This document shows, piece by piece, positions 2,010 to 54,701 of a stretch of DNA of 64,000 nt. The DNA is taken from contig JAFZKH010000002.1 of assembly GCA_017553685.1 (NCBI GenBank), positions 44,141 through 108,140 of the forward strand. The letters run 5' to 3'. A model generated the notes under the pieces. That model saw only the letters and a list, made by a program, of their open reading frames with translations, searched no databases and was not told where the DNA came from. The first letter of the stretch is position 1. Each line of letters opens with the position of its first letter. The translations under genes and the position numbers were made by a program. Source of the stretch: Bacilli bacterium (lineage in GTDB: Bacteria; Bacillota_I; Bacilli_A; RF39; UBA660).

Positions 2010-3785
2010 ATGAAAAAGAAATTAATATTTGTTTTTATATCATTTTTTCTTTTGGTATTTCCATTTAGCGTAAATGCTACAACTGATGGTTTTACCATTA
2101 CAAAATATGATGTAAAAATAATAGTAAATGAAAATAATACCTTAGATGTTACAGAAACTATTACAGCAGTTTTTGATCAATATGGAAAACATGGTATTAA
2201 AAGAGCTTTACCTACACATTCTACTTATAGAAGAAAAGTTGATGGTAGAGAAGTAGATATTAAACAAAAAGTTAAATATAAAAATATATCTATTAATGAA
2301 GACTATACAACAGAAACTGGTGACGGATATAAAACATTAAAGATTGGTAAATCATATAAGACATTAGATATTAATCAACCATATACATATATCATTAAGT
2401 ATACTTATGATACTGGTGATGATATGATTGATGAGTATGATGATTTATACTTCAATCTTATTGGTACTGAATGGACTGCTAAAATAGAAGAAGCAACATT
2501 TACTATAGTTATGCCTAAAGAATTTGCGACTAGTAATGAAAAAGGTTCTTTAATAAACTTTTCTACTGGTTATTATGGAAATGCTTATAATAAAGGTGTT
2601 AATTATAAAGTAGATGGAAAAATGATTACTGGTTTTATAGAAGAAAAATATGATGGGGTAGCACTTAATGAAAGAGAAGGTTTAACTGTTAGAATTGAAC
2701 TTCCTAATGGTTACTTTGTTGGTGCTAGAAAACATTATGATTTAACTCCTGTAATATTAGTAGGAACTATTCTAATACTTATTCTTATGATGCTAGGTGG
2801 ACTTGCATTATTTGTGAAATTTGGTCTTAGAAAGAAGAAAACAATGGTTGTTAGATATACTGCTCCTGATGGAGTAGATCCAGCATTAGCAGGTTTCTTA
2901 TATAAAGGTATTCCTGAATCAAATGATATAGTTGCATTAATAACTTATTTAGCTACTAAAGGTTATCTAAAGATAATTGATGATAAGGGTAGTAAATTTA
3001 AATTACAATTCTTAAAACCATTAGATGAAAGTGAACCAAACTATATTAAAACTACATTTAAAGGATTATTTAAGAAAGCAGATGAAGATGGTATAGTAAC
3101 TAAGAAAGATTTAACAAATAAATTCTATACATCACTTAATACTGCATTATCACAACTAGGTAAAACATATATTATTTATGCTAAGAGTCATGATAGAGTT
3201 ATAGCTTATAATATATTTATGGCTATCATATCATTCTGTTTTATATTAATACCTGTATCTGATGCATTATCATATAAAGTACATACTGTTTATGCTCCTT
3301 TATATGCTATATTCTGGGTATTAATACCAACAAATATAATACTTCAATTAGTATTAAGTATATGTACTAGAAAAAGAACTGATGAAGCAGAAAAGCTATA
3401 TGCTGATGTAGCAGGATATAGAGAATTTATAGATAAAGTAGATGTTAATAAGATTAATACTTTAGTAGAAGAAGATCCTCAATTATTCTATAATGTTTTA
3501 CCATATGCATATGTATTTGGTTTAACTAATAAATGGATTAAGAAGTTTGAATCTATTAAATTAGAACCTCCAACTTGGTATGAAGGTAATATTTATGATA
3601 TTCATACTGGAGCATTTAGACTTCAAAGTTTAACTTCAGGATTAGATTCTATTACTGCATCTGCTAAAACAACAATGTCTAGTAGACCATACGAATCATC
3701 AGGTGGATCTGGTGGCTTCGGTGGAGGCGGAGGCGGTGGCTTCTCCGGTGGAGGAGGAGGCGGCGGCGGTGGCTCAAGCTGGTAA
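2010..3785 (+). CDS. DUF2207 domain membrane protein with Gly-rich C-terminal tail
   Basis: Signal peptide, two TM segments, and a C-terminal GGSGGFGGGGGG tail, as in DUF2207 proteins found next to lemA. Confidence 0.7.
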   Translation: MKKKLIFVFISFFLLVFPFSVNATTDGFTITKYDVKIIVNENNTLDVTETITAVFDQYGKHGIKRALPTHSTYRRKVDGREVDIKQKVKYKNISINEDYTTETGDGYKTLKIGKSYKTLDINQPYTYIIKYTYDTGDDMIDEYDDLYFNLIGTEWTAKIEEATFTIVMPKEFATSNEKGSLINFSTGYYGNAYNKGVNYKVDGKMITGFIEEKYDGVALNEREGLTVRIELPNGYFVGARKHYDLTPVILVGTILILILMMLGGLALFVKFGLRKKKTMVVRYTAPDGVDPALAGFLYKGIPESNDIVALITYLATKGYLKIIDDKGSKFKLQFLKPLDESEPNYIKTTFKGLFKKADEDGIVTKKDLTNKFYTSLNTALSQLGKTYIIYAKSHDRVIAYNIFMAIISFCFILIPVSDALSYKVHTVYAPLYAIFWVLIPTNIILQLVLSICTRKRTDEAEKLYADVAGYREFIDKVDVNKINTLVEEDPQLFYNVLPYAYVFGLTNKWIKKFESIKLEPPTWYEGNIYDIHTGAFRLQSLTSGLDSITASAKTTMSSRPYESSGGSGGFGGGGGGGFSGGGGGGGGGSSW

Positions 3786-4056
3786 TACCTCTAAATTAAT
3801 AAAAGAAATAGATAATACATATGAAGTAATTAGATTTAAAGAACTTAGTAAAGTTATTAAATCTAATAAAGAATATATGACTTTAATAGATAAATTAAAT
3901 AGTACTGATAACATTAACGATGTAATTGCTATCAGAAAAGAGTTATTTAAGTACGGTGATATTAAAGAATATATTGAATTAGAGAAACAAATAAGATTAT
4001 TCTCTATGAGGCTTAGTAAAGAATTATCTAGTATAGTAGAAAAGCATACTTGTTAA
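3769..4056 (+). CDS. YlbF/YmcA-like (UPF0342) small regulatory protein
   Basis: About 95 aa and helical. The xEIDNTYEVIRFKEL...KEYxELEK pattern resembles the Com_YlbF family. The listed ATG at 3703 lies inside the Gly-rich tail of the upstream gene. GTG at 3769 follows the GGAGGAGGAGG stretch, which could act as the SD. The start is uncertain. Confidence 0.4.
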   Translation: MAQAGNTSKLIKEIDNTYEVIRFKELSKVIKSNKEYMTLIDKLNSTDNINDVIAIRKELFKYGDIKEYIELEKQIRLFSMRLSKELSSIVEKHTC

Positions 4057-5518: not shown

Positions 5519-5652
5519 ATATAAAAATATTGTGATATAAACAAATGTATGCTACGATTAAATTGTATTAATTATTCTAGCATGCGTTAATATGACAATT
5601 TGCGCGCGTACCGTTTATTTACTAAAGCTAGATAGTAAATTTGCATGACCGC

Positions 5653-5700
5653 GGGGAACACTTTCTATTAATAGATACGGGAGGTGTTTCCCGTTTTTTT
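5653..5700 (+). terminator. Intrinsic terminator/attenuator hairpin within a GC-rich leader
   Basis: GGGAACAC...GTGTTTCCC stem followed by TTTTTTTTGTTTTTT. Confidence 0.55.
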
Positions 5701-5778
5701 TGTTTTTTAGGAGGTGATTTTATACATAGGTTAGCAAATATAATTAATACAAATATTATTCATTTATAGGAGGTTTAT

Positions 5779-29347: not shown

Positions 29348-30025
29348 ATGAGCGAGAGAATTTATGTATATGTAACAACTGAAAAAGATTATAAGAAAGT
29401 ATTTAATGAAGGTATATGTTTTTTAAATCAAGATTTTAGTATGGATAAGGACTTTGAATTAGTAAGTGAAGATGATTTACCATTATTCTTGCAAAGTATA
29501 AAATCAAGTGAAACAGCATATGTTATTAAAGTGCCTGAAGAATATATGCAAGTAATAGTAAAAGATAATTTAAGAATCTTTCCATATCCAATACTTTTTG
29601 AAAGACAAATGTTTGATCAAAAAAGAAGAATAGTAGATTTCTATCCAGTTTTAGTTCCTGCATTAATTTCATTTATGTATAGTGAAAAGATAGGTATTAT
29701 TTGTAATCCAAATTATAGTATTAATTTTAATCCTAATGGATTAAAATATACTAAAGGACAATTAGATAGTGTTAAATCTAAAGCACCAAGATATCTTAAA
29801 GATTATGAAAAGAGAAATAATGAAGATTCAGTTACTTTATATTGTATTGATAAAACAAATCAAACTTGGGGTATGTTAAAAAAAGTATATAATGTTGATG
29901 ATTCTATTAATCCTTTTCCTTTAACAGAATTACCTTCTGTAACATTTGAACCTTCAAAGGAAAAGAAAAAGGGATTAAATAATAATAAAAAAGGTAAAAA
30001 AAAGGAACAATTTTATGAAGAATAA
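29348..30025 (+). CDS. Hypothetical cytoplasmic protein with Lys-rich C-terminus
   Basis: ORF with a CAGGAGGG SD. No recognisable motifs. Confidence 0.5.
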   Translation: MSERIYVYVTTEKDYKKVFNEGICFLNQDFSMDKDFELVSEDDLPLFLQSIKSSETAYVIKVPEEYMQVIVKDNLRIFPYPILFERQMFDQKRRIVDFYPVLVPALISFMYSEKIGIICNPNYSINFNPNGLKYTKGQLDSVKSKAPRYLKDYEKRNNEDSVTLYCIDKTNQTWGMLKKVYNVDDSINPFPLTELPSVTFEPSKEKKKGLNNNKKGKKKEQFYEE

Positions 30026-30225
30026 AATTGTTTTTTTAGTGGAATTATTCTTTTTATAGTTAATAAAATACTAAAGGGGGTAATAATATAAAAAGAATAA
30101 TTAAATATATAATAATTGCTTTAATAATAGGTATTATAGTAGGATTTACTATTATTAATAATAATAAAAAAGAAGATGTAGTAGAAATAAAAGAAGAACC
30201 TATAATAATAGAGAATATTGAAAAA

Positions 30226-31170
30226 ATGGTTTATTTAATAGATAAGAAGAACTCTAATGTAGATGAATTATTAAAAGATAATATAACTATTAAATATGAA
30301 ACTGTTTATGTATGTGAAGAAGAGTCTACTATTGAAGAAGAAATTGTTGAAGAAGATATAGTAGAGGAAGAAATAAAAGAGGAACCAGTTATAGAAGAAC
30401 CTAAATGTAAAGGTATAGTAGATAATAAATATTATGATGATAATTATAAATTAAGAGAAGAATTTACTGTTAAAGATGGTAAAGTATATTATGGTAATAA
30501 TAAAGGACTTCATTTAGTAGATGGCATAAGATATTATTTTGATTTTAATGATGGGCATTTAGTTAGATCATCTATTAAGAGTGTAATAGACATATCTTCT
30601 TGGCAAGGTGATATTGATTTTGATAAGTTAAAAGAAAGTAATTTAGTAGATGCAGTAATAGTTAGAGTAGGCTATGGAACAACAAATTCTAAATGTGGTT
30701 TAGATAATAAGTTTGAAAGAAATATAAAAGAATTAAATAGAGTAGGTATTCCATATGGAATATATATCTATGGATATGCTAATAATGAATATAGTGCTAA
30801 CATAGAAGCTAACTTTGTATATGATATGATAAATAAGTATAATGTTAATCTTAGTTATCCAGTATTCTATGATGCAGAATTAAGAACATATAATGGCATT
30901 TCTTACACTAAAAGTATATATACTAAGGTAATTAGTGCATTTACTTCAAATCTTGAATCTAAGGGCATTAAAACGGGTGTATATGGCAATTTATATATGC
31001 TTACTAAAGGATCACTTAATGATCCCTTTATTAGAAGTAAAACTATATGGGTAGCTCAGTATTATAATAAGTGTCAATATGATGGAGATTATATTGGATG
31101 GCAATATTCCTCAAATGGTAATATACCTGGGATATCTGGAAGAGTAGATATAAATATTTTTAATTATTAA
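30226..31170 (+). CDS. GH25 family muramidase (lysozyme) with N-terminal acidic repeat region; the real start is probably upstream at about 30088
   Basis: DISSWQGDIDF...VIVRVGYG...WVAQY...WQYSSNG...GRVDINIF is the GH25 signature. The same frame stays open back to 30067 and encodes a TM anchor. Confidence 0.7.
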   Translation: MVYLIDKKNSNVDELLKDNITIKYETVYVCEEESTIEEEIVEEDIVEEEIKEEPVIEEPKCKGIVDNKYYDDNYKLREEFTVKDGKVYYGNNKGLHLVDGIRYYFDFNDGHLVRSSIKSVIDISSWQGDIDFDKLKESNLVDAVIVRVGYGTTNSKCGLDNKFERNIKELNRVGIPYGIYIYGYANNEYSANIEANFVYDMINKYNVNLSYPVFYDAELRTYNGISYTKSIYTKVISAFTSNLESKGIKTGVYGNLYMLTKGSLNDPFIRSKTIWVAQYYNKCQYDGDYIGWQYSSNGNIPGISGRVDINIFNY

Positions 31171-41972: not shown

Positions 41973-44900
41973 ATGAAGAAGAAAAGAATAGGAAAAGTTA
42001 TAGCAGCATCGTTAATAGTAGTATTAGTAGCTGCTATTTTTGGCATTTTAAAGTTATCTAGTGTAGATAAATATAAAGGCTTAGTTACAATTAATAAAGC
42101 TAGTTTATCTAGTATATCTACTAAACTTAGTGCTAATATTAGTGATTTATCTGAAGATAACAATATTGAGGTAAAAGGATATGATGAGATAGATTATAAT
42201 ATTTCATACAAATTATCTGAAGTACCAGGAGAAAGAGATGTTATTATTAACGCTAAGATAAACGAAAATGATCAGTATGCTACTTTTAAAGAAGTAACTG
42301 GTACTGATATAACATCAGTTTTATCAGCAGATAGAAAAGAAATAACTATTACTCTTAAGAATCTTCCTTCTAATGAAGAAATTACTAGTAAAGTAACAAT
42401 GCTTATTGTAAATGCTCCAAAAGGATATACAGTAAGACCTTCAATTAGAATTAAAGAATCTACATCAGATGAATATACTACTGTAGCTGTTAGAGATGTA
42501 ACTGTTAATACATCAAGTGTACAAGGTACAGTAATTGATGAAGAAGGTAATAGAGTACCAAATATAATAATTGCCCTAAAGAAAAATAATCAAATTATCA
42601 AAGAGACTTATACAAATAGTGATGGTATATATACATTAAGTGATATTACTCCAGATACTTATTCAGTAGTAGTTAATGAAGAAAACTATGAAGATTTAGA
42701 ATTAAATAACTTATATATCAAAGATGGTAATCAACTTAATTTAATTGTTAAGAAAGTATTCCCATATAGAATTGAAACTAATAAATATATTACAAAAGTT
42801 GAATTAAATAACTTAGGATCTAAAAAAGATTATTTATATAACGATGTAAAACTTGCTAATATACCAGTTAGAAAAGTTAATAACTTACATGGTAAGATTT
42901 ATTATAAAATAACTGTTCAAAATACTGGAGAAAAAGCTGGTATTATTTCATCAGTTAAAGATGAATTACCAGAAGGATTAAGTTTTGATGAAAAATTAAA
43001 CTCTGGTTATGAACTTAAAAATGGAATTATTTATAATAGAAACCTAGAAGGTATAGAACTTAGTGCAGGAGAACAAATCTCTGATACATTAATTCTTACT
43101 ATTGAAAATACTGATGTTGCTAAAACATATATTAACAAAGTAAATGCAAGAGGAGAATTATATGAACATGTTATTTACTTACTAGATGGAAGAACATATA
43201 AAACATTAGATGTACTAGAAGGTGAAACAATTGATGAACCTACAGTAAGTGCACAAAACTTCTCTGGTTGGTATACAGATGAAACATTAACAAATAAATA
43301 TAAATTTGAATTACCTGTAGAAAAAGATTTAATTCTATATGGTGTAACTGCTAAGAAACATATTGTTAAATTTAATGATAAACATCCAGAAACATTAGTA
43401 GAAACTCCATATGATGAAAAAGAAGTTGACAATGGTGAACCAGTAACAAAACCTGCTACTGATCCTGAAAAAGAAGGATATGACTTCTGTGGATGGACTA
43501 AAGATGGTGTAGTATGGGATTTCCATACACCAGTAACAGAAGATTTAACATTAGTATCTAAATACTGTATTAAATCATATAAAGTTGAATTCTATGATAA
43601 GAGTGCTTCTAATGGAGCAGAATATGAAAAGATTGGAGACATCTCAAAAGAATATAAGAGTACTCTAAGTAATAGTGAAGCTCCTGATTTATCAAATGCT
43701 TGGATAGGACATAATTTCCTTAGATGGACAACTGATCAAGCAGGTGATACAGAATATAGCTTTAATACTCAAATTAAAGAAAATATTAAATTATATGCTC
43801 AATACTCATTACAAGATAGATCATTTATCTTTAATGATGAAAACAGAATAACAGAAAAATTTGTTAAATATGGTGAAACAGTTGAAGCTATCACTGATCA
43901 AGGTAAAGATGGACATTCATTTGTTCATTGGTCTTTAGAAGTAAATGGTCAAACACCATTTGACTTTAGTACTCCAATTTATCAAACAACAACAGTTTAT
44001 GCAGTATATCAAATTAATCAATATCATGTAATATTTAATGATACTGACCCATGGACAAATGTAACTGAACAATATGATGATCAAATAGTTAATCATGGTG
44101 GAAATGCTATTGAACCGGTAGAACCTCAAAAAGAAGGTCACACATTCTGTGGATGGAAATTAAATGGTAATGATTATAACTTTAGTACACAAGTAACTGA
44201 TAATATTACTTTAGATTCTTGTTATACAAAGAATAAAGTAAATGTTTACTTTATGAATGATACTGATATATGGGAAACAAAAGAAGTACCATATGCAGAT
44301 AAAGTAACAGCTCCATTAACTAGTCCAACTAAAGAACATAAGATATTCTCATATTGGTCAGAAGATGGAATAACACCATTTGATTATGATACTCAAATAA
44401 AAGAAGAAAAATATTTATATAGTGTATTTGAGGATATAACTCCTCCAATTATTGCTCATCAACCATTATATTGGACAAATGATAAAGTTCTAGTAACAAT
44501 TAGTCATGCAAGTCCTGTATTAACATTTAAATATAAAGTTGATGATGGTGCTTATGAAGATTATGCAGGAGCATTTGAATTATCAACTAATTCAACAATA
44601 GTTGCTAAATCATTATATGAAGATACTGAATCAGAAATTGTTTCACATGATGTAACAAATATCGATAAATTAAATCCAGAGATTGGTGATATAACATTTA
44701 CACCATCTCAAACAACAATTCTTATATCTGGAACAATGACTGATAATCAATCAGGTATTGCTCAAATAAGAGTTTATAGAGATAATACAACATCTGGAAC
44801 TATTAATGGTACAGTAATTGATGCTGATTTAAGAGATTATACAAAAACAAAAGATATGAATGTTGTTGTATCAGAATTAGAACCTGATACTGAATATACA

Positions 44901-47900
44901 TTTAGAATAGTAGTAACTGATGGAGCTGGTAATGAATCAGAACAAACAGTTACTGCATCAACATCTCCAGTTGAACCAATATGTCAAATTATTTCAGTTG
45001 ATGGTGTTGATTTAAATCCTGATGATTATATGCCATTCACATTATTAGAATATGCAATTGAAGATTCTCATTGTGATAATAAATGTACAATTCAAATGTT
45101 AAAAAGTACAAATGAATCTGTTGAAATTCTTAATACTCAAGATATTACATTAGATTTAAATGGTAAGACTGTAGCAGGTGTTCTTCCTGGATATACAGTT
45201 AATAACATGGGTGAATTTACATTAATAGATAATGGAACTTCAACTGGTGGATTAATTAATGGTAATGGTATAGCTGTTTACAATAACGAAAATGCTAAAT
45301 TTACTATGGGTGAGGGAAGTTCTGATCCTACTACTGATGGCCTTGGTAGAACAGTTTCTATCACTGCTCCATATGTATTTGGTGATTCATATGGTGTTTA
45401 TTCAGAACATGATGCTTTATTCTCATTCTTTGATGGTAAAGTTAGAGGTACAAATGCTATTCAAGGTGAAGTTAATGAAACAGAGTATTTATACAATGCA
45501 ACTTCATCTCAAGTGAATGATTATGAAGAAGTTATCTTAGCTATTCAAACTGAACCAGAAGCAAGAATTAATAAGAGTAAATATTATTCAAATATTAATG
45601 TTGCTACTGTAGATGCTAAAGGTGGTACTTCTGAAATTCAACAATCACAAGATTCGTTCTTAAGTGGATTTACACATGTAGATACTGATCCTATTATTAA
45701 TGTTGAACAAGTTAATCCAAATGGATTCCCATTTGTATATGATGCAGAAAACGATATATTAAAGTCTGGTAATCAATATTATGGTTCTATGGCATTCACT
45801 GAAACAATCATAGATTTAACTAATTATGCTGAAGATCAAGTGTTTGAAATAGAATATTATGTTAATCCTAATGTTGATGGTTCAAAAGGCAATTATAATA
45901 TTCAAGTATATCCAATAACTGATGATAATGTTATTTTATCATCTGCTGTATATACAATTTATAATAATGATAATTTAAGAGCATATAGATTAACAGCTGG
46001 TCGAAAATATAAAGTTTCAATTTCATATTTACAACCTGTTAGTCTTGTAAAGGCTGAATATACTGATAATGGATATGGTTTAGAAATTCTTCCATATTAT
46101 AATTCAATACCTGAATCAAGATTAGTTATTACAAGAGCTTCTCTTCACGTTGAAGAAAGAACTAAAACAGATGAAGAATTAATTGATGGAAATAATAAAG
46201 CAGTTGGATTCTATTATGATCCTACAACAGATACAATTAGATCAGATAGTCAATATGATAAGACCTCTGATTCTGCATATGCTTATGGTTATTATGAATT
46301 AGACTTAACTAATTATGAAGGCGAATATGAAATTAATTTAACAGCAAGTCTAGAAACATATGGTAATAGTTATGGATGTGCATATATTACAGAAGATAAC
46401 TATAATAACACAAAAGATTGTTATGCAAATTCTACTAATAAAATGCTTGTTAACTTCTATTCTTATTCTTCTTCATCATATGATACAGAACCTTATACAG
46501 GATATCCTTTAGGATACGATATAGTAGGTCCTTATACTGGTTATAGAACTCTTCAAGGTGGTAAGAAATATTATCTTAATTTAGTTTATTTAAAATATAA
46601 CTTAGAACGTAGACCTGAAAAAGAAGGCTTCATAGAAAATGATATAGCTGACCAATTTATAGTAAATAATATTAAGATTTATAAAACTGGTAATACGCAA
46701 GATATTGATATGGCTGCAGAAGTAAAAGGTACTGCTTTTGATTATGATAATCCATTTACATTTAATAATGTAGAATATTATGGACTACAACATTTTAATA
46801 ACAGTGATGTTAATGATTCATATATTAAAATAGACTTAACTGATGCTACAAGTGATAAGTTATTTGAGTTTGATAGATATGGTTCTACATATTATAACTA
46901 TTATTCAACTTATATAACTACAAATAATAGAGCTTTAACAGTTGATGAAGTTAAAACTAATAGAAGAGATTTAGCTCTAGTTAAAGACGATATATATGCA
47001 ACTGGTAATATATATCGTTATGATGATAATTCTTCATACTCTTATGGTGGAGGAACTAATAAGATTTATCTTGAAAAAGGAAATGTATATTATATTCACT
47101 TTAATGTAAGACTTGGTGCTTATGGTTATAGTTATCATAATGATGAGTATGATTGTAATTCAACAAGTGGATATTGTGGTGACATGATTAGTGGAATGAG
47201 ACTAAGAGACACAAGTAATACTATTCTAAATATGGGTAAATTACCAATAACTGTTGGTTCTGTTAATGTAGATAATTCTGAAGAAGAAAGTACTACAATT
47301 ACTCAATCTACAGGTGATGTAGTTAATCCAAACGGAATGATGACTGGTTCTTATGTCTGGGATTCCGATAGAAATATGTATGTATTAGCTCATCCTATTG
47401 AGTATTATCAAGCGGCAGGATGGACTGGTGAAATAGATTTAACAAATGAAACAGAGTCAAGTTTGTATCAATTCTTATATGAATATGATCCAACTGGTAA
47501 CTTATCTATATATGCATACTATACAGTTGATGAATTATATCCTATTAAATATACGAACTATGGTAGTGGTCCAGCATATCCAGAAGGATATAATTATATA
47601 AGTACAAATGGATATATAAATTTAGAGCCTGGACATAAATATTATTTATATGTAATGTCATATAGAAACTCGAGAAGTAATATTACGACAAATGCATTTA
47701 GGTTTGATAAAGTTGAGGGAGATAGAACAAAGGAATATACTAAGGGTGAAAAAGTAATCTCATTTAATGAAGATGTTGATGAAATTCAACTTCTTAAAAA
47801 TATTCAATTAAGTTCTACACTTGTATTTGATTATGATAAAGAAGTAGTATTAGACTTAAATGGATATAAGTTAACATCAAATTTAAATGGAGCTTTAATT

Positions 47901-50900
47901 AATAACTATGGTAAGTTAACAATTAAGGATAGTCATTATGAAAATCAAACTTCTGAAACTAAAACACATAGAGGTATTTTAGAAAGTACAGCAGGAAATA
48001 TTATTAAAAATAATATAGATGCTGAGTTGATAATAAAGAATGTTAGAATTAACATTGATACTAAAAGTAGATATGGTATCGAAAACTATGGTAATGTTAA
48101 ATTTGCAGATGGTTATGATTCTAAGATTTATGTTAATGCTCTTAGAGCATATGGTATTTATAATTATAGTAGTGGTAGAATTGATGATACTTCTGATTCA
48201 ATTGAAATTGTAATGAATTATCGTAATCAAGCTGAATTACCTTATAGTAGTTTATATAAGAGTTTATATGATAGTAATCAAATTAGTTATTATTCAAGTT
48301 ATATAAATACTGGTATTTATAATAGCGGTTATTATAATGCTTCTGGAATGAAAATCTCTGGTAAGCATGGTACTGGTTTTGATAATCAATCATCAGGTAC
48401 TGCTGTTATTAAGACTTCTAATATATCTGTAGATATTAATACATATGATAAGAGACTTCATGATGAGTATAGTGATTATAACTATAGATATGTTTATACA
48501 TCAAGATATGGTACTGATTATTATGCGACAATAACAGATTATTCTATAAAAAATGCTGGTACTATGACATTAATGAATGGTACAAATGTGGGAACTAGAA
48601 CATATAATACTGGTCAATTATTTGTTACTAATAGTTCTACACTTGACTATTTAGATAATGAGAATAAACTTGTTGCAAATAATTGGGCAGAAATGAGTAA
48701 TCTTTTAAATAAGAATTCAACTATTTTCTTTGATGTTTCATATGGTGTAACTAATCAAATAGATAACTATGGTGATTTACAACTTAGAAACTATTCTGCT
48801 ACTAGTTCAACTATTAATAATTATAGTGAACTTACAGGTGATTCCCTAAATCTAGGTACTATTAATAACGAAGGTAATATGAGATTTGTTAATGGTTCTT
48901 CAAAGTATGTTAATAATGCGGGAACAGCAAGAGCAGAAAACTTTAGTGTAATAGCTGATCCTGATGTTCATTCAGAAAATATAAAAAATAGTGGTATTTT
49001 AAATCTTACACAAAACTGTACTATTGGTGATTCAAGTAATCCTACTACATATGGAATACTAATGGTTCCAGCAGGAGGAGGAGCTCAATCTAACCCATAT
49101 AAACAAGTTGAATTAAATATGGGTATAGAAGGTACTACTAATAGTCCAAATATATATGTATATGGTAAGAATACAGGTATAGCAGGTAATTGTTATAGAA
49201 CTAAGAAAAATCCGGTTTATTCAATAACAGGTACTGGATCAAATGAACGTGTAAATGCTTCTGTTGGAGATTATTTCCAATATTTAAATGGCGATATCGA
49301 AGTATTAGATCAATCAAATTATGATCAAGATTTATGTGTATTTAATATGTATAATGGATATGTAACTTCAATAGATAATCCAAATACTCCTGTTAAAGCA
49401 GTAAGTATTCCAATTAATAATACATTAGATAATGAATATACATATTTTGGTGGAGGTTTAAGATTATTTGATAAAGATCAAGCTATTTCTACAAATTATA
49501 CTTCAAACGTTGTTAAGATAGGAAATACTGATTATATTTCTCTTCAAGATGCTGTTGATAGTATAACAACAGATACACCTACAACAATTGATATACTATG
49601 GTATACAGATGTGTCTAGTGTTGTAATTCCAGAAGGAAGAAATATAACACTTAACTTTACTCAAGATCATAATTCATTTGTATATGCTAGAGATGGTGGT
49701 ATTATCAATTATGGAAATTTAACAGTACAAGGTGCTGGTAAGTTAATAAATATTGGTAAATATGCATTTATCAACTATGGAACTATTACATTTGCTGGTG
49801 GTGATTATTTAGATAACTGGCAATATACTAGAATGGAACGTTCATTATTAAAGAACTATGGAACTGCAATTGTTAATGATGGTAGTATTTCTGGTCTAGA
49901 CTTAAATAACTTTGGTGAATTAACTATTAATAATGGTTCATTAAAAGGCACTATGGTTTATGGAACTGGAACTGATTCATTAACAACTATTAAGGGTGGA
50001 TACTTCTATGGTACATCTTCAGAAACTATTGATACATATCATGGATTTAAGACTGAAGTTAAGGAATATAAAACTAACCTTAGTTGGAGACATATGATTG
50101 AATTAAATCAAGGTGCAACAGCTGTCATTGATGGTTTAAATACTGAAACAGATACAAGATATACATATGTAAGACCTATTGCGCATCTTGATAATTCAAC
50201 ACTTATTTTTAAGAATAGTGTAATTAAAGAATTATCTAGTGAATATAATCCTATTAGATATATTTCTGCTGAATATAATTCTAATGTTATATTTGAAAGT
50301 GGTACTTATGAAAATATTTATATAGATGATAATGCATCTAAAGTTACTGTAACTGGTGGTAGCTTATCTGCTTATTCAAATGAGGATGTCAACTATAACC
50401 TAATGTTTTTACATGGTTCAACACCTAAAGCAGAAGTAACTGGCGGTGAATTGTATTCTAAGAAACGTGCTATTGGTTTATCTGATTTCACAAATGGTTA
50501 TGAAATTGTAATTGGTACAAAAGGTGACAAAGATGAAAATGATGAACTAATTGTATCTAAAACAAGTCCAAGTATAACTGGAGATATATATTCAGTTGCT
50601 AAATATGGTTCTGGTTCAGGTGTTGGTTATACAGGATTCTTTGATGGAATTTTAAAAGGTAGTACAGCAGCATCTGATATTAACTTTGATGAAATTGAAG
50701 ATGACTTTGAAATCATTGATGATACTGAAACATCTAAATTTACTAAGTATCTTGATCAAAAAGATCTAGTATATAACTCAACAACTGGAGTAACTTATAA
50801 ATCATTCCAAAAAGCATTTAGTGAAGCTACAAATGGTGATCAATTAGAGACTCTTAGAACTTATACAAATACTAAGACTACAGCAACAATTGTTATCCCA

Positions 50901-53900
50901 GAAACATCTAACTTTACATTACATATTAAACACGAAATAACTGTTAATAATGATACATTTATTGTAAATAATGGTACCGCAGAGTTTATTAGTTATCCTA
51001 CAACTGTAACTAATAATGTTTCTCATGAAGGTAGAATTAGTGTTAATGTAGCTAGTAAAGTGTTTGTTAATAATGGTACTTTAACATTAAAAGTTAACAT
51101 GGACGATTTAAAATCTGATGGAACAAATAGAGAAGTTATTTTAAATGAAGAAGGTGCAACATTAAATGTTGACCGTTCTAACATTACATCAGTTCAACGT
51201 GTAATTCTTAATAATGCTGGTACATTAAATATGAATGTAGGTGGTACTGAAAGTAATCATACTTCAACAATATTTACAATGGTATATGTTCCTGGTGATT
51301 CTTCATCAGTAGACTATGCTTTAGTAAATACTGGTACTGCAAATATTAATTACTTTACTTTAGATTCTCAATATATTAGACCAATTTTATTCAATTCAGG
51401 AAGAATGGTTGTTGATCATTCATTATTTAATCAAACTGGTTCAATAATTAATGTTGCTGCTACTCAAAGTGGATTAGAGTCTCCTGTATATAACTATAAT
51501 TACTTAGAAATTAAGAATAGTAATTTATATTATGTTCCTTCTAAAATTAATTATGATAGTATATATATGTATTTATATACCATTACAGGTTATTACTTTA
51601 GTAGTAGTCCAGAAAATACTTTAGGTAATAATGAAAATGCTACATTAATTCTAGATAATAACAGCATGGATACATCTGTTTTAGGTTTAGTTTACCAAGA
51701 TGGTTACATTAGATCTTATGGTTATCAAAATGATATTCATTATGCATTATTAAAAACTGTTCCTAACCAAGTTATAGTTAAGAATTCTGAATTACATAAT
51801 ATGGCTGGTGTTGTTCAAGCTAGAGGTTATGTAGATATCCAATTTATAGATAATACATTTAATATAAGAGATTTCTTTATTCAATCATTTAGTAAACGTG
51901 AATCATATAGAAATTATTATGATAATCGTGTATTAACAATTTATGCTCCACAACTAAAAGAAAGTGATGGTGCTAGTGAAAGTGTTGATATTAGATCTAA
52001 CGTTCTAATTGATGGTGGTACATATAATACTAATGCTTATATATATGTTGATAGAGATTATACAGCATTAACTAATGAAACATTAACGATAACTACACAA
52101 TCATACATGTTCCATATTTCACCATTAGAAATTAACTGTCCAACAGTTATAAGGGATGCTACAATTAATGTTTCTCCTTTAGCAAGTAAATCAAATCATC
52201 AATCTTATTACTCAGAATATGATGCAATATTTGAAGAATATATTAAAAAGATTGAAGGAAGACCTTCTTCATATCAAAATATGATTTACACAACAAGTAC
52301 ATGGAATTGGCTTGGTGCTGTTACAACATTCCAACCAGTAACAGTTATTAATTCTGAAATTAGTGTAACTGATGCTGATAGTGAAATGCCTGCTATTAAA
52401 GGTTATAGTGAAAATGCAATTATAACAATCGGAGAAAAAGATGGTAATTATAATGAAAGTTCTCCTAGATTATTCTCACAAAAGACTGGATATCCAGTAA
52501 GCTTCTATAGAAATCTTGGAGGTGTAAACTTCTATGATGGTGTTATTGAAACAGGAGCTAGTTATGGTATTCTTGTATATAATGAAATGGAAGATTTAGA
52601 TAAACATTTCTTAGATAAAGAAACTGATTATATTATTACTGGTACAAGTAAAAAGAGATATCTATCAAGAGAAAGCATTATTAAGAATGTTACTCAAGAT
52701 ATAGAATATAGTGATATTAATCAAGCATTTAATAGTGCTAATTCTGGTGATGAATTAGAAGTATTAGTTAATTATGTACCTACAGGTATTGAAACTTATA
52801 CAATTAATAGTAAAGAATTTACACTTGATCTAAAAGGTTTACTATTCACAGTTAATTTAGAGGTATCTAATGCAAGTGATATTTCAATTGTAGATACTAT
52901 TGGTGGTGGTAAAGTTTCAAGTGCTAAAGTTTATGACACATCAGAATTATCTATAAATAATAATTCTATTAATATTGATGGATACAATTCTTCGATAATT
53001 AATATTGCTCGTGAGAGTAAATGCACTATAAATATGCATGATAATTCAGTTTTAAATTTTGAAAATACTATTGTACCTAATGCACAAAATATAAACGCAA
53101 ATGTAAATACAGCTGCATTTATGTATGATGATTCTTCAATAAATATAACAGATAGTAAAATAGCTAGAGTAGAATTAAATGATAATTCAACATATGCATC
53201 AACTTGTACAACAGATGCTGATTTATATGTAGCTACATTTGATAATAATTCGACTGAAACAATAGAAATTTCTTGTGGTAGATATGGTGCTGGTACTAAT
53301 AACGGAAGTGTACATATTATAGGTGGTAAATACGGTGATTATAGTTCAATAGATAACTATGGTACAACAGTTTTTGATGGTGGTGGAACACACAGTATTT
53401 ATAACAGAGATGTTGGTATTGTAACAATAAATGATGGTACATTCTATAGAGTAAATAATGTTGGTCAAATGACTGTTAATGGTAGTAACATTACTGAATT
53501 ACGTGGTGGGGGAATATTAAATATTACAGGCGGTTATATTAAAGATATGATTAATGGTAGTACAACTACAATGACAGGTGGTACTATTGGAAAATATATT
53601 CATTCTGGAACATTTAATTTACTTGGTGGTAAACTTGGTATGCTTACTACTCAAACTGGTACTATTAATATTGGTGTTAAAGATGGCATTATAAATAGTG
53701 AAGAACCTGAAATTAATACTGAATATTACTATAGTGAAACACCATATACTGGATTAAGTATTCATGATGGAACTATACTTAACTTCTATGATGGATTTGT
53801 TATTGGAGCATCATCACCAGGAGCTATCACTGGTAAGATTAGTGATACTGAACCTGGTTATAAGATTGGTGTTGTAGATATAGGTGATGGTAAAGAAAAA

Positions 53901-54701
53901 GCTTACTTAACACCAATTACATATGATGATTCACTAGTAGCTATGGTTAATGGTATTAACTATAACTCATTACAACAAGCTGTTAATAAATCAGTTCAAA
54001 ACTGTACTTCTGGATCTACTTGTCCAAAAGTAACAATATTCTTAAATATTGAGTTAGATGCTGATTTAACAATTGCTAGTGGATATTCAGTAGATATTAA
54101 CTCTAATGGATTTAGTATTAGTACTAACGGATTTAATGTTGATCCTCATATTACTTTAGATGGAGCTGCTATAGAAGATGATACTCTTGGTGGTAATATC
54201 TTAAATAGTTTAAGAGGAATGCTTGGTTTTGATGAAACTGGTACTTCAGTATTAGTTTATGAAATGGCTGATGGTTCAGCATTAAGTTCAGAAAATCATT
54301 ATAGATTATATGAATATAATGGTAGTGACTATGACTTAGTTACTATGGAAAAAGGCGATGAAGTTGCTAGATATAATCCTGGTAAGGGAGTAACTAATAT
54401 GAAACCTATAAAAGGAAGATTATATTTAACAAACTTAGACCCTGGAAACTATAAAGTTTCTGATGATAATGGTAGTGAAGTAACATTTACTATTAATGAT
54501 GATGGAACTTTAAGTGGACATGTTAAAGAATATATTCCAAGTAATAATAAAATAGAATCAACTGGTGAAGCAAAATTACTAATTTCTATTCAAACTGGAA
54601 TAAGAAAAATTAACTATATGTTAATAGCAATTTCATTAATTGCAGTTTTATCTGTAATGTTTGTCTTAAAAAGAAAAAGTCAAAATAAAAATCTAGTTTA
54701 A
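41973..54701 (+). CDS. Giant (about 4,240 aa) cell-surface protein with signal peptide, CarboxypepD_reg/Cna-B-like domain, six or more Listeria-Bacteroides repeats, an Fn3-like domain, four tandem roughly 180-aa modules, a long parallel beta-helix region, and a C-terminal sorting-signal-like anchor
   Basis: Single uninterrupted ORF; the TGGAGG SD precedes the ATG at 41973. Domain motifs were read directly from the translation: GWYTDETL.../FCGWTKDG... repeats; repeated NYG/LDLNG beta-helix rungs; and a tail of IQTG, then a hydrophobic stretch, then KRKSQNK. Confidence 0.8.
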   Translation: MKKKRIGKVIAASLIVVLVAAIFGILKLSSVDKYKGLVTINKASLSSISTKLSANISDLSEDNNIEVKGYDEIDYNISYKLSEVPGERDVIINAKINENDQYATFKEVTGTDITSVLSADRKEITITLKNLPSNEEITSKVTMLIVNAPKGYTVRPSIRIKESTSDEYTTVAVRDVTVNTSSVQGTVIDEEGNRVPNIIIALKKNNQIIKETYTNSDGIYTLSDITPDTYSVVVNEENYEDLELNNLYIKDGNQLNLIVKKVFPYRIETNKYITKVELNNLGSKKDYLYNDVKLANIPVRKVNNLHGKIYYKITVQNTGEKAGIISSVKDELPEGLSFDEKLNSGYELKNGIIYNRNLEGIELSAGEQISDTLILTIENTDVAKTYINKVNARGELYEHVIYLLDGRTYKTLDVLEGETIDEPTVSAQNFSGWYTDETLTNKYKFELPVEKDLILYGVTAKKHIVKFNDKHPETLVETPYDEKEVDNGEPVTKPATDPEKEGYDFCGWTKDGVVWDFHTPVTEDLTLVSKYCIKSYKVEFYDKSASNGAEYEKIGDISKEYKSTLSNSEAPDLSNAWIGHNFLRWTTDQAGDTEYSFNTQIKENIKLYAQYSLQDRSFIFNDENRITEKFVKYGETVEAITDQGKDGHSFVHWSLEVNGQTPFDFSTPIYQTTTVYAVYQINQYHVIFNDTDPWTNVTEQYDDQIVNHGGNAIEPVEPQKEGHTFCGWKLNGNDYNFSTQVTDNITLDSCYTKNKVNVYFMNDTDIWETKEVPYADKVTAPLTSPTKEHKIFSYWSEDGITPFDYDTQIKEEKYLYSVFEDITPPIIAHQPLYWTNDKVLVTISHASPVLTFKYKVDDGAYEDYAGAFELSTNSTIVAKSLYEDTESEIVSHDVTNIDKLNPEIGDITFTPSQTTILISGTMTDNQSGIAQIRVYRDNTTSGTINGTVIDADLRDYTKTKDMNVVVSELEPDTEYTFRIVVTDGAGNESEQTVTASTSPVEPICQIISVDGVDLNPDDYMPFTLLEYAIEDSHCDNKCTIQMLKSTNESVEILNTQDITLDLNGKTVAGVLPGYTVNNMGEFTLIDNGTSTGGLINGNGIAVYNNENAKFTMGEGSSDPTTDGLGRTVSITAPYVFGDSYGVYSEHDALFSFFDGKVRGTNAIQGEVNETEYLYNATSSQVNDYEEVILAIQTEPEARINKSKYYSNINVATVDAKGGTSEIQQSQDSFLSGFTHVDTDPIINVEQVNPNGFPFVYDAENDILKSGNQYYGSMAFTETIIDLTNYAEDQVFEIEYYVNPNVDGSKGNYNIQVYPITDDNVILSSAVYTIYNNDNLRAYRLTAGRKYKVSISYLQPVSLVKAEYTDNGYGLEILPYYNSIPESRLVITRASLHVEERTKTDEELIDGNNKAVGFYYDPTTDTIRSDSQYDKTSDSAYAYGYYELDLTNYEGEYEINLTASLETYGNSYGCAYITEDNYNNTKDCYANSTNKMLVNFYSYSSSSYDTEPYTGYPLGYDIVGPYTGYRTLQGGKKYYLNLVYLKYNLERRPEKEGFIENDIADQFIVNNIKIYKTGNTQDIDMAAEVKGTAFDYDNPFTFNNVEYYGLQHFNNSDVNDSYIKIDLTDATSDKLFEFDRYGSTYYNYYSTYITTNNRALTVDEVKTNRRDLALVKDDIYATGNIYRYDDNSSYSYGGGTNKIYLEKGNVYYIHFNVRLGAYGYSYHNDEYDCNSTSGYCGDMISGMRLRDTSNTILNMGKLPITVGSVNVDNSEEESTTITQSTGDVVNPNGMMTGSYVWDSDRNMYVLAHPIEYYQAAGWTGEIDLTNETESSLYQFLYEYDPTGNLSIYAYYTVDELYPIKYTNYGSGPAYPEGYNYISTNGYINLEPGHKYYLYVMSYRNSRSNITTNAFRFDKVEGDRTKEYTKGEKVISFNEDVDEIQLLKNIQLSSTLVFDYDKEVVLDLNGYKLTSNLNGALINNYGKLTIKDSHYENQTSETKTHRGILESTAGNIIKNNIDAELIIKNVRINIDTKSRYGIENYGNVKFADGYDSKIYVNALRAYGIYNYSSGRIDDTSDSIEIVMNYRNQAELPYSSLYKSLYDSNQISYYSSYINTGIYNSGYYNASGMKISGKHGTGFDNQSSGTAVIKTSNISVDINTYDKRLHDEYSDYNYRYVYTSRYGTDYYATITDYSIKNAGTMTLMNGTNVGTRTYNTGQLFVTNSSTLDYLDNENKLVANNWAEMSNLLNKNSTIFFDVSYGVTNQIDNYGDLQLRNYSATSSTINNYSELTGDSLNLGTINNEGNMRFVNGSSKYVNNAGTARAENFSVIADPDVHSENIKNSGILNLTQNCTIGDSSNPTTYGILMVPAGGGAQSNPYKQVELNMGIEGTTNSPNIYVYGKNTGIAGNCYRTKKNPVYSITGTGSNERVNASVGDYFQYLNGDIEVLDQSNYDQDLCVFNMYNGYVTSIDNPNTPVKAVSIPINNTLDNEYTYFGGGLRLFDKDQAISTNYTSNVVKIGNTDYISLQDAVDSITTDTPTTIDILWYTDVSSVVIPEGRNITLNFTQDHNSFVYARDGGIINYGNLTVQGAGKLINIGKYAFINYGTITFAGGDYLDNWQYTRMERSLLKNYGTAIVNDGSISGLDLNNFGELTINNGSLKGTMVYGTGTDSLTTIKGGYFYGTSSETIDTYHGFKTEVKEYKTNLSWRHMIELNQGATAVIDGLNTETDTRYTYVRPIAHLDNSTLIFKNSVIKELSSEYNPIRYISAEYNSNVIFESGTYENIYIDDNASKVTVTGGSLSAYSNEDVNYNLMFLHGSTPKAEVTGGELYSKKRAIGLSDFTNGYEIVIGTKGDKDENDELIVSKTSPSITGDIYSVAKYGSGSGVGYTGFFDGILKGSTAASDINFDEIEDDFEIIDDTETSKFTKYLDQKDLVYNSTTGVTYKSFQKAFSEATNGDQLETLRTYTNTKTTATIVIPETSNFTLHIKHEITVNNDTFIVNNGTAEFISYPTTVTNNVSHEGRISVNVASKVFVNNGTLTLKVNMDDLKSDGTNREVILNEEGATLNVDRSNITSVQRVILNNAGTLNMNVGGTESNHTSTIFTMVYVPGDSSSVDYALVNTGTANINYFTLDSQYIRPILFNSGRMVVDHSLFNQTGSIINVAATQSGLESPVYNYNYLEIKNSNLYYVPSKINYDSIYMYLYTITGYYFSSSPENTLGNNENATLILDNNSMDTSVLGLVYQDGYIRSYGYQNDIHYALLKTVPNQVIVKNSELHNMAGVVQARGYVDIQFIDNTFNIRDFFIQSFSKRESYRNYYDNRVLTIYAPQLKESDGASESVDIRSNVLIDGGTYNTNAYIYVDRDYTALTNETLTITTQSYMFHISPLEINCPTVIRDATINVSPLASKSNHQSYYSEYDAIFEEYIKKIEGRPSSYQNMIYTTSTWNWLGAVTTFQPVTVINSEISVTDADSEMPAIKGYSENAIITIGEKDGNYNESSPRLFSQKTGYPVSFYRNLGGVNFYDGVIETGASYGILVYNEMEDLDKHFLDKETDYIITGTSKKRYLSRESIIKNVTQDIEYSDINQAFNSANSGDELEVLVNYVPTGIETYTINSKEFTLDLKGLLFTVNLEVSNASDISIVDTIGGGKVSSAKVYDTSELSINNNSINIDGYNSSIINIARESKCTINMHDNSVLNFENTIVPNAQNINANVNTAAFMYDDSSINITDSKIARVELNDNSTYASTCTTDADLYVATFDNNSTETIEISCGRYGAGTNNGSVHIIGGKYGDYSSIDNYGTTVFDGGGTHSIYNRDVGIVTINDGTFYRVNNVGQMTVNGSNITELRGGGILNITGGYIKDMINGSTTTMTGGTIGKYIHSGTFNLLGGKLGMLTTQTGTINIGVKDGIINSEEPEINTEYYYSETPYTGLSIHDGTILNFYDGFVIGASSPGAITGKISDTEPGYKIGVVDIGDGKEKAYLTPITYDDSLVAMVNGINYNSLQQAVNKSVQNCTSGSTCPKVTIFLNIELDADLTIASGYSVDINSNGFSISTNGFNVDPHITLDGAAIEDDTLGGNILNSLRGMLGFDETGTSVLVYEMADGSALSSENHYRLYEYNGSDYDLVTMEKGDEVARYNPGKGVTNMKPIKGRLYLTNLDPGNYKVSDDNGSEVTFTINDDGTLSGHVKEYIPSNNKIESTGEAKLLISIQTGIRKINYMLIAISLIAVLSVMFVLKRKSQNKNLV

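Follow-up and report, generated by a model that had tools for sequence, protein, structure and literature searches.

Where does translation of the GH25 muramidase gene in this lineage begin, and is its product a cytoplasmic or a membrane-anchored enzyme? The window, by which we mean the whole stretch of 64,000 nucleotides of Bacilli bacterium DNA that was analysed, carries a GH25 frame on the plus strand (as are the parts of the gene and of its upstream region given below) which is bounded upstream by a TAA stop at 30064-66, is open from 30067 and reaches its first canonical initiation codon only at ATG 30226. The database coding sequence begins at that ATG (30226-31170, 314 aa). The 53 codons that precede it stay open and translate to NTKGGNNIKRIIKYIIIALIIGIIVGFTIINNNKKEDVVEIKEEPIIIENIEK, and a codon scan found no in-frame ATG, GTG or TTG within this extension, as the original prediction had said. 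That prediction proposed initiation at a rare AUA or AUU codon, and on re-reading the sequence all of its coordinates and sequences proved correct, including the stop, the open frame, the internal ATG and the Shine-Dalgarno (SD) sequence AAAGGGGG at 30073-80, which is separated by a 7-nt gap from ATA 30088. Taking the evidence set out below together, we think it highly likely that the gene is intact and that its coding sequence starts at ATA 30088 rather than at ATG 30226, a level of confidence that covers an upstream start at ATA 30088 or at most one codon from it. The revised coding sequence would then run from 30088 to 31170, as 360 codons plus TAA, and would specify a 360-aa product.

An upstream start presupposes that the extension is coding. 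The window has a GC content of approximately 25% and the extension one of 15%, so stop codons would be expected to be frequent there; in the window locus the GH25 frame has none, while the two alternative frames contain 15 and 6. When the sequence was shuffled at matched composition, it remained open over 46 codons in just 0.1% of cases (P = 0.001). The first 46 codons are likewise free of in-frame stops at every locus with a non-canonical start, against 3-15 per other frame, and the probability of a shuffled sequence remaining open was 0.001-0.004 across these loci. The extensions are 46-49 codons long and differ in length only by whole codons. At synonymous differences per site (pS) of 0.3-0.7 between lineages, the pooled pN/pS is 0.50 for the extension and 0.23 for the catalytic domain, with the value for this short extension being noisy and some pairs lying near 1. 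The extension is therefore under relaxed but real constraint, as expected of an anchor and linker. A survey of the window's 65 open frames with 90 codons or more showed no other plus-strand gene in which a start-less 5' extension exceeds 19 codons, an ORF cut by the window edge aside; the remaining long start-less extensions are antisense shadow frames.

The homologues indicate where within the extension the start should lie. A protein search returned the window's own product (P0001, 314 aa, called from the internal ATG) and about 15 close relatives with 63-89% identity. Three of these, P0004, P0006 and P0007, begin MKKIIKY…, MKKLKY… or MIIKKIINF…, continue into a hydrophobic segment and carry L or K in place of the window's Met47; P0002, P0003, P0015 and P0005 have …IIKRIIKY… behind odd short extensions (MELFIIIVNIILKGVS…, MGCC…), and P0008, P0009, P0010, P0012 and P0014 are called from MVYLI, as is the window product. 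More distant homologues (41-50% identity) all have M-K-K/R plus a hydrophobic segment aligned with the window's I-K-R. The orthologues that show this arrangement at the aligned column, close and distant, include P0004, P0006, P0052, P0066, P0069, P0035 and P0057, and homologues down to approximately 45% identity use ATG or TTG there. The alignment with orthologous proteins that the original prediction had suggested thus gave a clear outcome, in that the orthologues do begin with the membrane segment and their ATG or TTG falls exactly in the column of the window's ATA.

We then recovered the relatives' DNA from genome and metagenome collections, extracted every start region and aligned the close clade. 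Directly before K-K/R, ATA stands in the window, L001/L031, L002, L003/L004, L005/L006, L008, L012, L013, L014, L015 and L030, ATT in L007, and ATG in L009, L010/L011 and L032, such that 12 of the 15 distinct close-clade loci, at 63-83% protein identity, have ATA or ATT. The more distant homologues have ATG or TTG at this position (TTG in L021, L022 and L024), with the exception of L036, which has ATT (856-858) and no canonical in-frame codon until codon 134. The codons seen at the start position within the family are only ATG, TTG, ATA and ATT, all four of which are known to initiate translation, and the column that aligns with the orthologous ATG or TTG is the only start position common to all loci. 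With the purifying selection on the extension, these observations lend strong support to the proposal of rare AUA or AUU initiation. The extension is coding, homologous to the N-termini of the orthologues and conserved under purifying selection.

A neighbour-joining tree (200 bootstraps) recovered the close clade, mostly ATA or ATT, in 200/200 replicates. Within it, L009 + L010 + L032, all ATG, were grouped in 199/200, L007 + L008, with ATT and ATA respectively, in 200/200, and L012 + L015 + L030, all ATA, in 178/200, and the deeper nodes are weak (47-55% bootstrap), so the number of switches between ATG and ATA is not fixed. Two histories fit the alignment, with either a single basal change from ATG to ATA followed by reversion or several independent losses of ATG, and under either of them the ATT of L007 and that of L036 would be further changes. 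The nearest relatives of L036 start with TTG (L022, L024) or ATG (L038), these four loci forming an outgroup clade with 200/200 support, and its ATT marks a second, independent switch to a non-canonical start within the gene family.

The ribosome binding site points to the same position. In its extended form, AAAGGGGGT (30073-30081), the SD makes nine contiguous pairs with the 3' end of 16S rRNA (-12.5 kcal/mol) and ranks third among 42 gene starts in the window, for which the median is -9.3 kcal/mol. Every related locus has an SD at the upstream start, of -8.6 to -13.6 kcal/mol and 6-11 bp in the relatives. The starts of the close clade lie 5-8 nt downstream of an AAGGGGG or AGGAGG SD, as do those of more distant homologues, and other genes in the window have 4-10 nt between SD and start. 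The SD of the ATG orthologues is as strong as that of the ATA loci, so it is an ancestral feature and did not arise specifically to offset the ATA. From this spacing and from the alignment with the orthologous ATG and TTG starts, ATA 30088-30090 is the candidate initiation codon, which would be read as fMet.

The extension is rich in ATA and ATT codons, and in most relatives an ATT immediately precedes the ATA (a tandem ATT ATA), so one might ask whether a different near-cognate codon is used, such as ATA 30097, ATT 30100 or, in the relatives, the ATT at position -1. We regard this as improbable. The window has AAT AAT between the SD and ATA 30088, making this ATA the only AUN codon from the SD to codon 4; the AUN codons that follow have SD spacings of 16-19 nt, beyond the 4-10 nt seen at other window genes, and a later start would drop the K-R charges that orient the anchor, whereas the column of the orthologous ATG or TTG is shared by all loci. 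In L012 and L015 there is also a TTG two codons upstream of the ATA, just 1-2 nt past the G-run. Because of such tandem ATT ATA codons or nearby TTG codons, the exact initiating codon in those relatives is uncertain by one or two codons. A further candidate, GTG 30039, was rejected: it belongs to the invariant AGTGGAAT DNA block discussed below, and only L001 and L031 have it in the muramidase frame. In the window its frame is a different one, and in most relatives a stop codon comes after it.

The most obvious competitor to ATA 30088 is the internal ATG at 30226-30228, which we read as an ordinary Met codon (Met47). Were translation to begin there, the product would be a 314-aa GH25 protein that is cytoplasmic or otherwise exported, and the upstream frame would be the remnant of a lost anchor. 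Gene callers chose this ATG for the window protein and five orthologues, and most of the ATA clade has kept it. However, the SD duplex before it amounts to only -2.9 kcal/mol in the window, and no relative has an SD there (-1.8 to -5.0 kcal/mol across all loci). Codon 47 is TTA, AAA, CTA or TTT in six lineages (L009, L010, L032, L012, L015 and L030), and L030, an ATA-start locus, lacks a canonical in-frame codon both upstream of its ATA and from there up to codon 122, a position that lies past the well-conserved VYLIDKKNSN…YETVY block. A remnant in DNA of 15% GC would also gain stops quickly, whereas the upstream frame is open, has whole-codon indels and shows a pN/pS of about 0.5 at considerable synonymous divergence. 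We consequently consider a start at ATG 30226 alone to be very improbable. The original prediction had raised the prospect of orthologues that start at the internal Met; the variable codon 47 and the consistent absence of an SD speak against it.

Both starts could, in principle, be used, with a minor anchored form made from ATA and a soluble cytoplasmic form from ATG47. Met47 is retained by all members of two ATA/ATT lineages, the initiation region has no significant RNA structure (z = 0.37), and AT-rich unstructured mRNA can permit initiation that is independent of an SD. Against this, ATG47 has no SD, the ATA-start loci L030, L012 and L015 do without Met47, which is hence not required, and there is no obvious substrate for a cytoplasmic muramidase. 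Dual use therefore seems unlikely to us, if slightly less so than the other alternatives considered here. The related idea of ATG47 as a co-evolved backup start had arisen from an earlier set of loci, in which this ATG was present in every ATA/ATT locus and absent from the ATG-start loci; it was discarded since the same three ATA-start loci have TTT or CTA at this codon, breaking the correlation.

A sequencing or assembly artefact, or an inactivating mutation confined to one strain, might also be invoked to explain the ATA. Apart from the rarity of ATA starts there is nothing to favour this. Sixteen close-clade loci show the ATA or ATT state; they come from more than 12 independent assemblies and from several host animals, and include MAGs from the rumen and duodenum of sheep that carry the label 'Bacilli bacterium'. 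An ENA contig with a single base difference from the window in 2,945 is identical to it throughout the SD-ATA region. The catalytic motifs are intact as well. The possibility of a start codon lost through error, which the original prediction had left standing beside that of rare initiation, is refuted by this recurrence and by the near-identical contig, and we attach a negligible probability to an error or pseudogene. Initiation at ATA 30088 is thus the reading that we carry forward.

Read from ATA 30088, the protein has a hydrophobic membrane segment at residues 4-22 (IIKYIIIALIIGIIVGFTI, 30097-30153), with K-R before it and NNNKKED after it, in which the Kyte-Doolittle 19-mer maximum of 2.68 is found. 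The maximum has the same position in all relatives, after K-R or K-K, and the segment aligns with the N-terminal membrane segments of the ATG- and TTG-start homologues. The signal anchor that had been suggested from the window sequence agrees with the basic residues and 19-residue hydrophobic segment common to the window protein and its relatives. Looking by eye for a signal-peptidase cleavage site in the sequence that follows, we saw no small-x-small motif. The GH25 catalytic domain occupies residues 167-349 (30586-31134) and matches Pfam PF01183 at 80.2 bits against a gathering cutoff of 27 (E = 3e-22), over profile positions 1-180 of 180. The motifs D-I-S-x-W-Q (D168, S170, W172, Q173) and F-Y-D-A-E (D262, A263, E264) are invariant in 15 homologues, and we take the Asp of D-x-S-x-x-Q and the D-x-E motif to be the GH25 catalytic acidic motifs. 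A search for cell-wall-binding repeats gave only a sub-threshold Choline_bind_3 match (E = 0.42), and we do not claim such a domain. As judged from these features, the product is a 360-aa signal-anchored GH25 muramidase that is predicted to be extracellular rather than cytoplasmic.

The genes around the muramidase fit an envelope function. Genes for a DUF3048 protein, an LCP-family protein, an O-antigen-ligase-like membrane protein and an unknown protein are followed by the GH25 gene, and other neighbours encode an SGNH/GDSL hydrolase, a second unknown protein, an acyltransferase-3 protein and a HIGH_NTase1 protein. This synteny is conserved in relatives, and no phage genes that would indicate a prophage lysis cassette were found near the muramidase. 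From its gene content, the locus is a chromosomal cell-envelope (polysaccharide) cluster.

Between the muramidase and the preceding gene there is a putative intrinsic terminator of the latter at 30006-30037, consisting of an AT-rich hairpin (30006-14 / 30024-32) and a T-run (30031-37); relatives have hairpins of differing sequence and a T-run at the same place, and a consensus terminator scan did not flag the feature since its stem has too few G-C pairs. It is followed by the conserved AGTGGAAT block (30038-30045), a candidate promoter or regulator site in which GGAAT is invariant in 15 aligned loci and which is not enriched elsewhere within the window, and by an A/T block resembling a -10 box at 30056-30070, which has invariant A/T columns in the alignment, reads TAAAAT here and TATAAT in most relatives, and may function as such. 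The order across 30038-30070 in L001-L032 is GGAAT within AGTGGAAT, 12-13 nt, G(A/T)(A/T/C)AAT and then the TATAAT-like block. These blocks are a poor fit to sigma-70 spacing, and a sigma-70 promoter scan upstream of the muramidase gave no signal above that of shuffles. Setting the GGAAT and TATAAT-like blocks by eye beside sigma-H, sigma-G and ECF consensus sequences yielded no assignment. With no more than 3-6 nt between the -10-like block and the SD, the 5' leader would be very short.

We also considered whether this start is particular to the muramidase. Nearly all other genes in the window have an ordinary SD and ATG, and no other gene with only a near-cognate start was found across the whole window in ORFs of at least 90 codons, gene-start contexts and strong SDs. 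The unbiased list of strong SDs contained one other gene-start-like site with a near-cognate codon alone, in the leader of fic, the rest lying inside coding regions. Its SD, AGGAGGTGA (5709-17; 11 bp, -17.7 kcal/mol), surpasses all others in the window and is located 7 nt before ATA 5722, which opens a 15-codon mini-ORF (IHRLANIINTNIIHL, in the 5709-5769 region) in the same frame as fic. The original prediction had noted a similar pattern at this site, and the very strong SD and the ATA at 7 nt agree with it; the mini-ORF is nevertheless closed by a TAG that overlaps the fic SD, and the fic gene starts in the normal way, from ATG 5779 behind a normal SD of its own. The mini-ORF may be an ATA-initiated leader peptide, or the sequence may act as a decoy SD. 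The muramidase is a gene-specific case, with the fic leader as a candidate second site.

Several other features of the window were observed during these scans. Just upstream of the fic leader, at 5580-5700, there is a GC-rich, strongly structured element of approximately 120 nt whose end is formed by a perfect terminator hairpin (GGGAACAC…GUGUUUCCCG) and a U-run. The only Rfam match at gathering thresholds was tRNA-Gln, and relaxing the thresholds brought up no credible match upstream of fic; this element may be an unclassified small RNA or attenuator. A run of GGTGGAGGCGGAGGC repeats at 3700-3790 supplies the 2010-3785 ORF with a glycine-rich tail at its 3' end, and these repeats yield several spurious strong-SD matches as well as an overlapping GTG ORF (3646-4056). 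A single ORF of approximately 4,240 codons spans 41973-54701, and another large ORF, with repeated domains, runs from 61159 off the end of the window; these are presumably giant surface or adhesin proteins.

The way in which databases treat this family deserves attention. Not one entry for an ATA-type orthologue starts at the candidate ATA. Six are truncated at Met47 (P0001, P0008, P0009, P0010, P0012 and P0014), four read through the SD, having been called from a spurious GTG or TTG (P0002, P0003, P0005 and P0015), P0007 starts at the poorly spaced TTG two codons upstream and P0011 starts part-way into the membrane segment. These odd N-termini are accounted for by callers that settled on Met47 or on a GTG or TTG located within the SD or before it. 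In L012 (2501-2509), L015 (1438-1446) and L002 (1887-1904), the TTG used by callers (giving MIIKK…, MGCC…) lies inside the G-run of the SD or 1-2 nt after it. Such spacing is too short for normal SD-directed initiation, and the database N-termini of these three are probably wrong by 2-5 residues. Callers that are limited to ATG, GTG and TTG would repeat this N-terminal error in AT-rich genomes, which would skew predictions of protein location.

Starts of this kind have precedents. In Staphylococcus aureus, infC, ccpN and citZ start with AUA and cvfC1 with AUU, all with extended SDs, as established by Ribo-Ret and reporters, and near-cognate starts there give about 10-30% of the AUG output (PMC13009471). 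Four non-canonical starts have been validated genome-wide in that species, and the AUA start of ccpN is conserved in B. subtilis (PMC13009471). The muramidase resembles these genes in having a near-cognate AUN codon, an extended SD at suitable spacing and conservation of the weak codon, and in coming from the Bacilli, and by analogy a reduced output would be expected of it too. Such starts are therefore already known, and the muramidase fits the S. aureus class in all features open to computational testing. It differs in being a membrane-anchored cell-wall hydrolase rather than a regulator, a metabolic enzyme or IF3, in its host, an uncultured ruminant-gut lineage of 25% GC in which the start is predicted from sequence, and in belonging to a family that has switched start repeatedly between ATG, TTG, ATA and ATT. 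E. coli uses AUA, AUU, AUC and CUG as starts with 1-2% of the efficiency of AUG (bioRxiv 10.1101/063800), and its infC and pcnB genes have AUU starts (cited in PMC13009471), which are weak and IF3-discriminated. An inefficient AUN start would, as for those two genes, limit translation of the muramidase. The weak codon of E. coli infC is part of an IF3 autoregulatory loop, and such a loop is not evident for the muramidase.

At the protein level, the closest parallels are S. pneumoniae LytC and Clostridium Lyc, which are secreted or anchored GH25 autolysins of Firmicutes. The window muramidase shares with them a GH25 catalytic domain that is, in its case, predicted to be exported to the wall. 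According to Pfam, choline-binding or cell-wall-binding repeats are present in the more distant homologues, and unlike LytC and Lyc the window protein has an uncleaved-looking N-terminal anchor, an acidic linker, a sub-threshold repeat match and an ATA start. SAR (signal-arrest-release) phage endolysins also possess an N-terminal transmembrane segment, which in those enzymes is weakly hydrophobic and Gly/Ala-rich. The segment of the muramidase is strongly hydrophobic and Ile-rich, and its gene is part of a conserved chromosomal cell-envelope cluster with phage genes absent nearby.

If initiation does occur at ATA 30088, the following sequence of events can be envisaged. The 9-bp extended SD would position the 30S subunit 7 nt before the ATA, where initiator fMet-tRNA (anticodon CAU) would read AUA despite the third-position mismatch. 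The resulting protein would begin fMet-KRIIKY and continue into the 19-residue hydrophobic segment, which would serve as an uncleaved N-in/C-out signal anchor and place the acidic linker and the GH25 domain outside the membrane, allowing peptidoglycan to be cut in the context of a cell-envelope polysaccharide locus. The near-cognate start would lower output, perhaps to around 10-30% of that of AUG by analogy with S. aureus or to 1-2% by analogy with E. coli, and this might be tolerable, or even a useful throttle on a potentially autolytic enzyme. Whether the weak start codon is adaptive rather than tolerated seems to us evenly balanced. The strong SD that is ancestral to the family probably made the change from ATG to ATA, a G-to-A transition in a genome of 25% GC, survivable.

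A bolder proposal is that the AUA start is maintained as an IF3-sensed throttle which ties synthesis of the anchored autolysin to the translational state of the cell, and that this lineage may use AUA starts far more than model bacteria do. The two candidate AUA sites behind the strongest SDs of the window, those of the muramidase and the fic-leader mini-ORF, stand among about 45 initiation sites, compared with the four validated non-canonical starts of the entire S. aureus genome. We consider the proposal unlikely. If frequent AUA starts do prove true of the lineage, many of its proteins would be mis-annotated at their N-termini and a class of AUA-initiated leader peptides would have been missed.

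For the family itself, the muramidase would add a conserved and comparatively well supported AUA start to what is a very short bacterial list, and would bring a new functional class, the autolysins, to it. With its strong ancestral SDs and its repeated changes of start codon, the family may also serve as a test case for whether strong ancestral SDs let start codons decay under AT mutational pressure.
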